Virus record (IMG/VR): IMGVR_UViG_2939521961_000018
Length of the DNA stretch: 64,000 nucleotides
Source: a virus
Taxonomy: Duplodnaviria > Heunggongvirae > Uroviricota > Caudoviricetes
Direction: 5' to 3' (one strand)
Positions within the stretch are counted from its first letter, which is position 1. Every line of letters starts with the position of its first letter. Positions 51,001-54,000 of the stretch are shown one piece after another. The position numbers are program-made.

Positions 51001-54000
51001 AAGCGAACAGCAGTAACGAGTCAAATAGAACCCTGCGGGGTTGGTGGTTTTTGACAAAAACACTGCATGTAACTATAATTAGTTACAGTGTAGCGAAGAT
51101 GAGATTATGTGGGCATGGGGAAAGCAGATAAGCTACTGGCAAAATTTTTAAACAGTAAAAAAACGTTTGAATGGGATGAGCTGGTCGTTTTGTTTTCCTC
51201 TCTGGGATATGTCAAAAAGGAAATGCAGGGGTCAAGAGTGCGGTTTTTCAATGCTGAAATCAACCACACCATATTAATGCATCGCCCTCATCCGGAAAGT
51301 TATGTCAAAGGTGGCACGTTGAAAGCGATTAAACAGAATCTGAAAGAGGCTGGGGTATTATGAAGCATCTAAAATATAAAGGATATTTAGGTACAGTTGA
51401 ACCAGATTTTGAAAATAATATCCTCTATGGAAAGCTGGCATTTATTCGGGACTTGGTAACTTATGAGGCTTCTACGTTAGCTGAACTGGAAAAGGAGTTT
51501 AAAACATCAGTTGATCTGTATTTACAGTCTTGTGTGGAGGATGGAAAGGAACCTGATACCCCGTTTAAAGGCGTGTTTAACGTCCGGCTTGATCCCGAAC
51601 TGCATCGTCGGGTAGCAGAAATGGCGATGGAAGAAGATTTATCACTGAACGCATTTGTTAATAAGGCGCTGGAAAAAGAAGTCAACCATCACACAGGGGC
51701 TTAATGTCACCTTCGTCTTTGACATCCTCACCGACATGAAGAACTGGTTTTACGGCACACCGGATAAAGGCCGCGAAAGCGGCCTTGTTTTTAGCGAATT
51801 CCACCACCGCCAGGACGAGAATCAGAAGAACGGCCACCACAACGAGAGCCGTCAGCAGCAGTATCATTGTCGTGCTGGCAATTACCCGCGAATGATTGAG
51901 TCGAAGCTACCAGTGACAACAAGACGAACAATGCAGCAAATGCTTTTTTCATGTAAGACACCTTATTTTAGGTTTTGGTAAGCTCAAATAATGCCCGAAA
52001 AGTGCATCCCTGCAAGGTTATTGATATCGCTCTGTGAGCTCAATCAAAAGTCTCATCATTCCACTGCGACTTTATGACTTTTCCGACAAACTGGCAGTTT
52101 TCGTTACACTCAATCATGTCGAATCGTGGGTTGAGTGGCTCCAGGTACGCTTTACCGCTCTCACGAATGAATCGTTTGAAGGTGAATTCATCGCCGTTCA
52201 TTCGGGCCACGCAAAAATCGCCATCCTCGATTTCCCGTTCAGGGTCAACGAGTATCAGCATCCCTTCAGGGAAACTGGGTTTACCACCCTGCGGCGCGGT
52301 CATTGAATGCCCCTTGACCTCCAGCCAGAACGACCTGTCACTGGCTTTTGTGGTGGTGGAGATCCACTTAATCGCATCCTTTGCGGTGTACGAAAAATCA
52401 TCCATTGAGAAAGCTCCAGCCTGTACGCAGGAGAGTAACGGATATTCGTAATATTTCTCGAACAGGTTACGCCTGTTTCCCGGTGTGTGGGTACGAATAC
52501 TGCGTAACAAATCACTCAGATCTGGATTAATTTCTTCCGCAGGAACCTGTAATAAAGCCGCAAACTTAAGGGTATTTTCAGTATTTAACGCAATTTTTGC
52601 GTTCAATAACTGACTAACAGCCCCCTGCGTTTTGAAGCCGAGGATATCTGCGGCTTTTTCCTGGCTTAGGGATAGCTGTTTCCGTTTTTCATCCCAGATT
52701 TTGCGCAGTCGTTCAGCGTTCTGGATGTCTTTGTCAGTAATTGTAATTTTCTTCGTCATAGTGCCTCCAATTTTATTAGCAACACAAATATTTAGCAAAT
52801 AGCTAGCCTATTGACATTTAAATCAGGTAAGCTAATATCGGAAAATTGAAATGGGAGGATCTCTATGACTCTTGACGAGTACTTGAGACAAAGCTCTATC
52901 AGACAAGCCGATTTTGCGGCGATTGTTGGAGTTTCTCAGGGATTTGTCAGTGGGGTTATTACAGGGAGATACATGCCTCAGGGGCGGAAAGCCATTGAAT
53001 GGGCAAAAGCTACAGACTGGAATGTAACTCCCCATGAACTAAACCCGCATGACTACCCAAACATGGAAGACGGTATTCCGCTTCATGTAAGGCAAACAGC
53101 CTGATAACCCTCCATCGGAGGTGTGAGTGAACAGGCAAATCAAAACGGTTATGCCCGATCAGTACAGCGATGCTGATCGGGACTGGATACAGGAGCAATT
53201 GTTACAGCTAGACCCGACCACCCGGGTAAAAATTGCAGCAGAGTACGCGAGAGTGTACCAGGAAGAGTGGGACAAGGAGCCTGTATCGTTCAGGAAGGGC
53301 AACAGGGCAAGACGGAGCGCCAACACCCGGTTACGGGTGTATGTCCAGAAGTACGCGAGAGCCAGCCGTGGCTGGATGATTTCGCCAGTAGCGATACGGA
53401 AGGAATAGACCTCATCAAGGTGACTATTTTTTGTGAAATAATTGCATATGAAATTATTTTACCTGAAATTTTACTAAGAAGGGGGTAAGGGGGCAGATCT
53501 GTAACATCCGTGCCCGTAAGGGCACTACCAGAAAGACAGCTCCATAGGTTAGGTAGATCACTGTATAGGGTGCGATAGTTTCTGGCAAAATTATTATCAT
53601 GCTAACTATTACAGTGGAAATAGTACCATGTTCATCAAACATGTGGTTATCAACCTGCTCGGAAACAAATTCTACACCGGAAAAGACAAGGTCACGTTTG
53701 ATTATGTGCTGGCTGCCAAATTGCGTGATGCCGGACTGGCGATCGAACGTAATTATCTGGTTGATATGGGCAACGGTAAGCGCGGATTCGTCGATATCGT
53801 GGTCGTTGCCCCATCTGGTGAACGGTGCGCGATCGAGGTGGACAGAGCGTCACCACGGGCACGTTCAATACTGAAACTGCGCAGACTCAAGCTATACGGC
53901 ATTCCTGGTATCGTGCTTCTGCGCTGTTCACGTAATCCGGATCAATACGTTTGCGATGAGATCGACGTGATCCCGGCAACGGGTAAATCACGTAGCAAGG

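Follow-up and report, generated by a model that had tools for sequence, protein, structure and literature searches.

What is the gene pair that lies close to the repressor gene of a lambdoid, Shiga toxin (Stx)-type Escherichia coli prophage, and does it resemble the characterised members of its family in regulation and catalysis? We addressed this question in a 64,000-nucleotide stretch of DNA recorded as a virus of the Caudoviricetes (IMG/VR record IMGVR_UViG_2939521961_000018). This whole stretch is called the window below, and all positions refer to it unless stated otherwise. An earlier note on the same DNA had pointed to a module resembling hicAB toxin-antitoxin (TA) systems at 51051-51704. 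Our analysis indicates that the region of ~0.75 kb at 51037-51796 is very probably a complete and self-contained hicAB type II TA cassette, which would operate by the mechanism proposed below.

The identity of the two genes, as suggested in the earlier note, is borne out by Pfam, by RefSeq annotation, by predicted folds and by the published toxicity and rescue of the same type of module from IncX4 plasmids. The product of the first gene matched the Pfam family HicA_toxin (43.6 bits, cut-off 27) and that of the second matched HicB (PF05534; 71.1 bits, cut-off 21). PHROGs describe the two products as 'toxin' and 'HicB-like antitoxin', respectively, both in the moron category, and RefSeq names them HicA family toxin and HicB family antitoxin in the chromosome of E. 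coli JNEC-KY204, which is 100% identical to the window. No NCBIfam model reached its cut-off for either protein. Single-sequence searches of the PDB with HicA and with HicB retrieved no HicA or HicB, and a profile built from 11 HicA sequences gave only chance-level matches to solved structures. As sequence and profile searches reached no solved HicB, and solved HicA only marginally, a comparison of folds was needed. The AlphaFold2 (AF2) model of HicA (predicted local distance difference test score, pLDDT, 95.6) has a core of helix 20-29, strands 32-36, 41-46 and 51-56, and helix 66-79, and its top Foldseek matches were 6g26_E, 1whz and 4c26 (probabilities 0.8-1.0), the best being Burkholderia pseudomallei HicA and Thermus thermophilus TTHA1913. 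The AF2 model of HicB (pLDDT 87) comprises strands within residues 4-37, a helix at 40-60 and two further helices at 79-91 and 96-112; Foldseek placed it closest to B. pseudomallei HicB (6g26_A and 6g1n_C) and TTHA0281. The N-terminal part of HicB corresponds to the partial RNase-H-like, neutralising domain of such antitoxins. The C-terminal helices of the model, together with weak matches to ribbon-helix-helix families (Antitox_RHH, YlcI/YnfO, Arc-like PHROGs and CopG 9kkd), agree with the ribbon-helix-helix C-terminus that had been proposed for this protein.

The organisation of the operon is likewise that of a HicAB system, with the toxin gene first, a single promoter upstream and a terminator downstream, the last abutting the 3' end of a convergent membrane-protein gene (Table 1). 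The 114-aa hicB at 51360-51704 stands as originally called, as does the 4-bp overlap with hicA, which is the ATGA at 51360-51363. The length of 84 aa given for hicA was a mechanical open reading frame (ORF) call from GTG 51109; the ATG at 51115, which yields 82 aa, is conserved in all relatives and is the start used by RefSeq. The GTG start was rejected, as the bases holding it are missing from the IncX4 copies. No terminator-like site was found inside the operon, between 51109 and 51704, so that hicA and hicB are overlapping ORFs without an internal intrinsic terminator, which is the arrangement designated HicA^O B by Lin et al. 2025 (NAR, PMC11878559). In the classification of Gerdes 2024, Class 4 comprises hicAB operons with a ribbon-helix-helix HicB, and the module in the window is a Class 4 hicAB type II TA system.

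We next turn to how the module may be controlled. The perfect TTGACA-17-TATAAT promoter reported ahead of hicA is present at 51051-51079. It is the only perfect match to TTGACA-N17-TATAAT in the 64-kb window, and none was seen in 100 dinucleotide-preserving shuffles; the transcript is predicted to start near 51086. An inverted repeat does surround the -10 hexamer, and the earlier description of it as 7-6-7 gives way to a fuller reading as a perfect 8-4-8 palindrome. We aligned the region upstream of hicA from the prophage in the window, a second prophage, two IncX4 plasmids, one IncI2 plasmid and one IncF plasmid. Upstream of the T-run that precedes the -35 hexamer, the sequences of the prophage, IncX4 and IncI2/IncF contexts were unrelated. 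The -35 and -10 hexamers and the palindrome were kept in all four types of copies while the flanks diverged entirely, and TTTTGACAA and TGTAACTATAATTAGTT(A/G)CA were invariant across them. A short G+C hairpin runs with its T-run into the -35 hexamer; it probably insulates the cassette from upstream transcription, and a different hairpin occupies the same position in the IncX4 and Erwinia versions. A 15-bp palindrome around the -35 (GTTTTTG-A-CAAAAAC) was also considered as a second operator and was rejected, as it is not kept in the IncI2 and IncF copies.

The palindrome was then surveyed in 80 loci encoding HicB homologues of 55-95% identity, one genome per species, from genera including Photorhabdus, Xenorhabdus, Erwinia, Haemophilus, Avibacterium, Acinetobacter, Thiomicrospira, Marinobacter, Vibrio, Colwellia and Sulfuriferula. 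Most of these loci carry an 82-aa hicA directly upstream of hicB. When the 150 nt before hicA were scanned in 66 non-redundant loci for GYAACTA-N4-TAGTTRC with at most two mismatches, the motif was found in 49, against a mean of 0.2 expected from shuffled upstream regions, and a single further site occurred in the remaining 180 kb of the same loci. In the promoter-proximal copy of the motif, a -10-like hexamer (TATAAT or TATACT) always occupies motif positions 6-11. A second copy lies 32-33 bp upstream in 18 loci, mostly of Acinetobacter, and its arms are conserved although its spacer varies and does not resemble a -10. The promoters with two copies, those of Acinetobacter and several further genera, take a TTGCAA -35 from the right arm of the distal copy and the -10 from the proximal spacer. 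The window has only the proximal copy, paired with a consensus -35, and the enterobacterial copies have lost the distal operator and carry the consensus TTGACA instead.

These observations bear directly on the proposal that the palindrome is a site of HicB autoregulation. As the distal copies keep their arms around variable spacers, conservation extends to the pair of dyad arms and is not confined to the promoter. The motif accompanies the module across hosts and replicons, and therefore its reader should be encoded by the module itself; HicB is by far the likeliest reader because it is the sole DNA-binding protein of the module. Yersinia pestis HicB3 and B. pseudomallei HicB, both of the ribbon-helix-helix type, are known to bind palindromes overlapping the -10. 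The occurrence of the motif in 49 of the 66 loci and its invariance amid diverged flanks thus lend comparative support to the proposal, and the palindrome is strongly supported as a putative HicB autoregulation site.

The same module is common on plasmids. It was found in 456 of 5426 complete E. coli genomes, at 467 places on plasmids versus 25 on chromosomes, and in 794 plasmids of PLSDB, nearly all conjugative and of the IncX4, IncI2 and IncF types. The unit shared with the plasmids extends from ~51048 to 51705, namely from the promoter through the hicB stop codon. The closest characterised system is the HicA^O B module of IncX4 plasmids (pJIE143 and p14EC007a), which we compared by means of representative plasmids carrying the same WP_ proteins, not pJIE143 itself (JN194214). 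HicA and HicB are 96% identical to those of the window and the DNA is ~91-93% identical; the ORFs overlap without an internal terminator, and the -35, the -10 and the palindrome are the same. The two differ in setting, the plasmid transfer region in IncX4 versus a prophage cargo slot in the window, in a 7-nt indel in the ribosome-binding region, and in one arm of the palindrome, which is TAGTTACA in the perfect repeat of the window and TAGTTGCA in the plasmid copies. Lin et al. 2025 (PMC11878559) reported that HicA of p14EC007a (IncX4) is toxic to E. coli K-12 and that HicB neutralises it completely, that hicA and hicB mRNA are present at similar levels, and that the module gives only a small advantage in plasmid competition. 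Thus, the toxicity and rescue assay that the earlier note had proposed has already been done on the plasmid type, and by extension HicA of the window would presumably be toxic when expressed alone and neutralised by HicB. The hicAB locus is in this sense already known: RefSeq annotates it, and its type has been characterised on plasmids, with 96% identity in the copies compared.

More distant relatives place the module within the family. The HicAB family was named for the HicB locus of Haemophilus influenzae, and this founding 'hif-contiguous' hicAB (HicB Q9LA69) shares with the window the gene sizes (82 and ~114 aa), the gene order and the overlap, at 61-66% identity for HicB and 57% for HicA. 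The H. influenzae locus is chromosomal, lying in the pilus gene cluster, and of the operator it retains no more than the left half in recognisable form (GTAACTATACTTGATAC). The best structural matches of the pair are the solved Y. pestis HicA3B3 and B. pseudomallei HicAB, in which, as in the window, the toxin gene comes first, HicB consists of an N-terminal neutralising domain and a C-terminal ribbon-helix-helix, and the repressor palindrome overlaps the -10, as does the putative operator of the window. Despite this resemblance, HicB of the window has no detectable sequence similarity to HicB of Y. pestis or B. pseudomallei, and the similarity of HicA is marginal (E ~0.002). HicA of the window further differs from these two toxins in an N-terminal helix extension of ~20 residues and in an Arg in place of the catalytic His, and there is one putative operator in the window versus two in Y. 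pestis. E. coli K-12 hicAB (yncN/ydcQ) belongs to the same HicA and HicB families and is also toxin-first, and its HicA keeps His23.

The active site of HicA is where the module departs most clearly from the characterised toxins. Every characterised HicA toxin is reported to have an essential or conserved His after Gly-Ser (His24 in B. pseudomallei, His23 in E. coli and His36 in Streptococcus pneumoniae), and His24 is replaced by Ala in the crystallised B. pseudomallei HicA mutant. A profile of the subfamily aligns Gly39-Ser40-Arg41 of the window protein with the Gly-Ser-His of B. pseudomallei (His24) and S. pneumoniae (His36) HicA, so that the residue after Gly-Ser in the window is Arg41. An exhaustive search for HicA at E <= 0.001 returned 1914 cluster representatives. 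Of 106 divergent full-length members, 95 have Arg at position 41, 5 have Ala, 4 Gly and 2 Ser, and none has His; His56 is present in 105 and His59 in all 106, forming an HxPHP motif. The catalytic His after Gly-Ser therefore defines the characterised HicA members rather than the Pfam family. In the model of HicA, strands 41-46 and 51-56 form a hairpin, and residues 41 and 56 should be cross-strand neighbours, as judged from the strand pairing in the DSSP string and not from distances. Because the IncX4-type HicA is toxic, the canonical His is evidently not required in this lineage, and His56 is the obvious candidate for its replacement. We tentatively suggest a rearranged active site, in which Arg41 stands in for the His and His56, possibly with His59, takes over its function, so that the catalytic residue would have migrated in a toxin that is still toxic. 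The literature consulted on HicA contains no discussion of such an Arg41/His56 swap. The subfamily in question is large and includes the founding Haemophilus HicA.

Taken together, the following mechanism can be proposed for the cassette. The consensus sigma-70 promoter would drive a single hicA-hicB mRNA, which would start near 51086 and stop at the terminator hairpin (51767-51786), and the ATGA overlap would couple translation of the two genes. HicA, with its fold resembling a double-stranded RNA-binding domain (dsRBD), would be an RNA-targeting growth inhibitor that arrests growth when free, and the N-terminal domain of HicB would cap and neutralise it. A dimer or tetramer of HicB, or the HicAB complex, would bind the 20-bp palindrome through the ribbon-helix-helix and thereby shut the maximal promoter, and, if other HicAB systems are a guide, HicA in excess would lift the repression. 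We infer HicB binding to the palindrome, derepression by excess HicA, the RNase chemistry of the subfamily and the biological role of the module from the comparisons above. In the prophage, the most likely contribution of the cassette is to stabilise the element, to exclude other phages, or both.

We next consider the surroundings of the cassette. The genes of the prophage run rightwards in the order exo, recT, gam, kil, ORF6N and Rha; a pair comprising a Panacea (DUF4065) gene, then hicAB and a small membrane-protein gene; and cI, cro and the replication genes. The module had been placed next to cI, and the repressor gene is indeed near, with the small membrane-protein gene sitting between hicB and cI. 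Two blocks of the window, 47412-51036 and 52026-52977, are matched by the Stx2a phage Stx2_EC3283, whose repressor and Panacea pair are those of the window. The left block of homology ends at 51036, and in place of 51037-52025 the phage carries a 2.5-kb segment encoding a BsuBI/PstI-type endonuclease and an Eco57I-like methylase (3635-6179 of its locus, L088). In prophage 2015C-3121, hicAB is present and a gene for an SDH-type protease is inserted after the hicAB terminator. As Stx2_EC3283 has a restriction-modification system there, the slot downstream of cI is an exchangeable cargo or defence slot, and hicAB, with its own promoter (51051-79) and terminator (51767-86) and its presence or absence among relatives, is an autonomous cassette in it. 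As a unit with its own transcription signals that is replaced between conserved flanks in Stx2_EC3283, the cassette is a phage moron. Expression in the lysogen, which the earlier note had thought likely, is plausible, as the host-type sigma-70 promoter would serve the module independently and would putatively be self-regulated. To see which genes the repressor might control, we looked for cI operator copies shared by the region between cI and cro and the surroundings of hicAB and of the Panacea pair, and none was convincing; the only matches, short and in two copies (D5 at 50958/52775 and D16 at 51977/52826), did not stand out from the other 22 families, which are at chance level. The literature, when searched for hicAB in Shiga toxin prophages, yielded nothing specific.

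Several points weigh against the interpretation of the region as a working, self-regulated hicAB cassette. A profile of 88 HicB sequences found no HicB among solved structures, and solved HicA was reached only marginally even with the 106-sequence profile. Arg41 at the position of the essential His makes the catalytic mechanism and the RNase activity of the subfamily presumptive. The words 'operator' and 'palindrom' are absent from the main text of Lin et al. 2025 (PMC11878559), and only the left half-site of the operator is recognisable in Pasteurellaceae homologues, including that of H. influenzae. As regards the role, PADLOC returned no defence model match for any of five proteins, and for the IncX4 copy a function in plasmid maintenance has reportedly been discarded or found to be weak. 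One rival reading is that the cassette is a decayed or disarmed remnant, with a catalytically dead HicA and a pair that persists only as regulator or ballast. An Arg41 at the place of His24 (B. pseudomallei) and His36 (S. pneumoniae) in the HicA alignment is what this predicts, and several Haemophilus genomes have a hicB of this type without any hicA match (L017, L018 and L030) or with only a C-terminal hicA fragment (L023, L033 and L034), apparently as orphan antitoxins or with degraded toxins. Nevertheless, the combination of an Arg or small residue at position 41 with His56 and His59 marks the whole subfamily, as seen in 106 divergent members, which speaks for purifying selection and not decay; the IncX4-type HicA is toxic in E. 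coli and neutralised by HicB; and both ORFs of the window are intact and coupled. We therefore regard decay as extremely improbable. It is also very improbable, if slightly less so, that the palindrome is not the HicB operator and owes its conservation only to the -10 and the promoter elements around it, or serves as the binding site of a host factor. The central position of the -10 in the repeat means that promoter constraint explains part of its conservation, and HicB binding in this subfamily is deduced from sequence comparisons. Against this, genera from Acinetobacter to Vibrio share the arms beyond the -10, the second copies in 18 loci repeat the same arms around unrelated spacers, the motif goes along with the module to hosts and replicons that are unrelated, HicB being the one DNA-binding protein of the module and hence the expected reader of the motif, and the 180 kb of flanking DNA hold a single site.

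A third alternative leaves the anatomy of the cassette unchanged and concerns its purpose: its main role in the prophage may be abortive infection or superinfection defence rather than addiction, hicAB being one of several interchangeable cargos downstream of cI. The restriction-modification system in the same slot of Stx2_EC3283 and the protease gene added in prophage 2015C-3121 are suggestive in this respect, Gerdes 2024 puts forward, from genomic context, a phage-defence function of HicA systems, and the advantage conferred by the IncX4 copy in plasmid competition is weak. Such genomic context is only suggestive, however; no HicAB system has been shown in the literature to protect against a phage, and the PADLOC result offers no help. 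Abortive-infection defence as the main role is accordingly possible but rather doubtful, and we retain the broader reading of a TA cassette that stabilises the prophage, excludes other phages, or both.

The Panacea pair upstream of hicAB deserves separate comment. The earlier note was right that hicAB is divergent from the DUF4065 pair, and the view that the two form a two-module island has to be abandoned, as each occurs without the other in close relatives: the pair is present without hicAB in Stx2a phages, and hicAB is present without the pair in prophage 2015C-3121. The adjacency therefore reflects no conserved partnership. The Panacea protein scored 79.1 bits with Pfam SocA_Panacea. Its partner, of 126/127 aa, has hydrophobic C-terminal segments and no Pfam family, and its sole match was PHROG 33656 (function not assigned). 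The two genes are joined at a TGATG junction and have their own terminator at 50048..50029. The partner, whose translation is coupled to that of the Panacea gene, is a candidate toxin acting at the membrane, and the two may constitute a putative TA pair independent of hicAB. The pair is bracketed by a 13-nt direct repeat (AAGCAGCGAACAG / AAGAAGCGAACAG) at 50100-50112 and 50998-51010. Prophage 2015C-3121 lacks the equivalent of 50113-51004, with the junction in the 13-nt repeat (5001-5016 of its locus, L002) and a 3' stub of the 127-aa gene kept, which indicates loss of the pair, probably by a repeat-mediated deletion.

Two observations were made elsewhere in the prophage. The apparently gene-free stretch at 49.3-50.0 kb is filled by Rfam matches to C4 antisense RNA (78.8 bits) and isrK (57.2 bits), which lie in tandem at 49355-49543 on the minus strand, just upstream of the Rha-family gene (48656-49330) and downstream of a promoter-like TTGACT-18-TATATT (49886-49915); the arrangement resembles the immI-type antirepressor control unit of P1 and P7. 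The Stx2 locus at 58569-60426 comprises tRNA-Met, tRNA-Arg and tRNA-Arg (58569-58820), followed by an stxA-like ORF (58911-59693), an intact stxB of 89 aa (59881-60150) and the small RNA STnc100 (60225-60426). Stx2A has 319 aa, and the stxA-like ORF encodes 260 aa only, with an aberrant C-terminus, which suggests that it is frameshifted or truncated.

Table 1. Features of the hicAB cassette and its neighbours, in window coordinates
Feature	Position	Strand	Description
Panacea (DUF4065) gene and coupled membrane-protein gene	50047..50897	-	Panacea gene 50427-50897; 126/127-aa membrane-protein gene 50047-50427/50430; divergent from hicAB
Short G+C hairpin with T-run entering the -35	51029..51042		Terminator-like site; left edge of exchangeable cargo
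hicAB promoter	51051..51079	+	-35 TTGACA 51051-51056, 17-nt spacer, -10 TATAAT 51074-51079; 12/12 match to sigma-70 consensus
Putative HicB operator	51068..51087		Perfect 8-4-8 palindrome TGTAACTA-TAAT-TAGTTACA enclosing the -10 hexamer
hicA	51115..51363	+	82 aa; HicA-family toxin, dsRBD-like fold, GSR...HxPHP subfamily
hicB	51360..51704	+	114 aa; antitoxin with N-terminal beta-sheet/helix domain (1-60) and C-terminal ribbon-helix-helix (~70-112)
hicAB intrinsic terminator	51767..51796 (hairpin 51767-51786)	+	8-bp stem with 6 G-C pairs, then GTTTTT
Small 'transmembrane anchored protein' gene	51791..51952	-	phrog_14503; downstream of cI; in the same exchangeable slot, outside the TA module
Prophage repressor gene, cI-like	52040..52759	-	Helix-turn-helix and S24 peptidase; right border of cargo slot

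The findings carry implications at three levels. The HicAB of epidemic mcr-1 IncX4 plasmids is also carried, as a promoter-to-stop unit of 0.66 kb, in the repressor-adjacent cargo slot of Stx-type prophages, where a restriction-modification system can take its place. For HicB of the Haemophilus/IncX4 type, GYAACTA-N4-TAGTTRC with the -10 in its spacer would represent a family-wide operator consensus, undescribed in the literature consulted on this type. Finally, a whole subfamily of HicA does without the histidine to which all characterised HicA toxins are said to owe their activity, which opens a cheap test of the HicA mechanism by mutagenesis.

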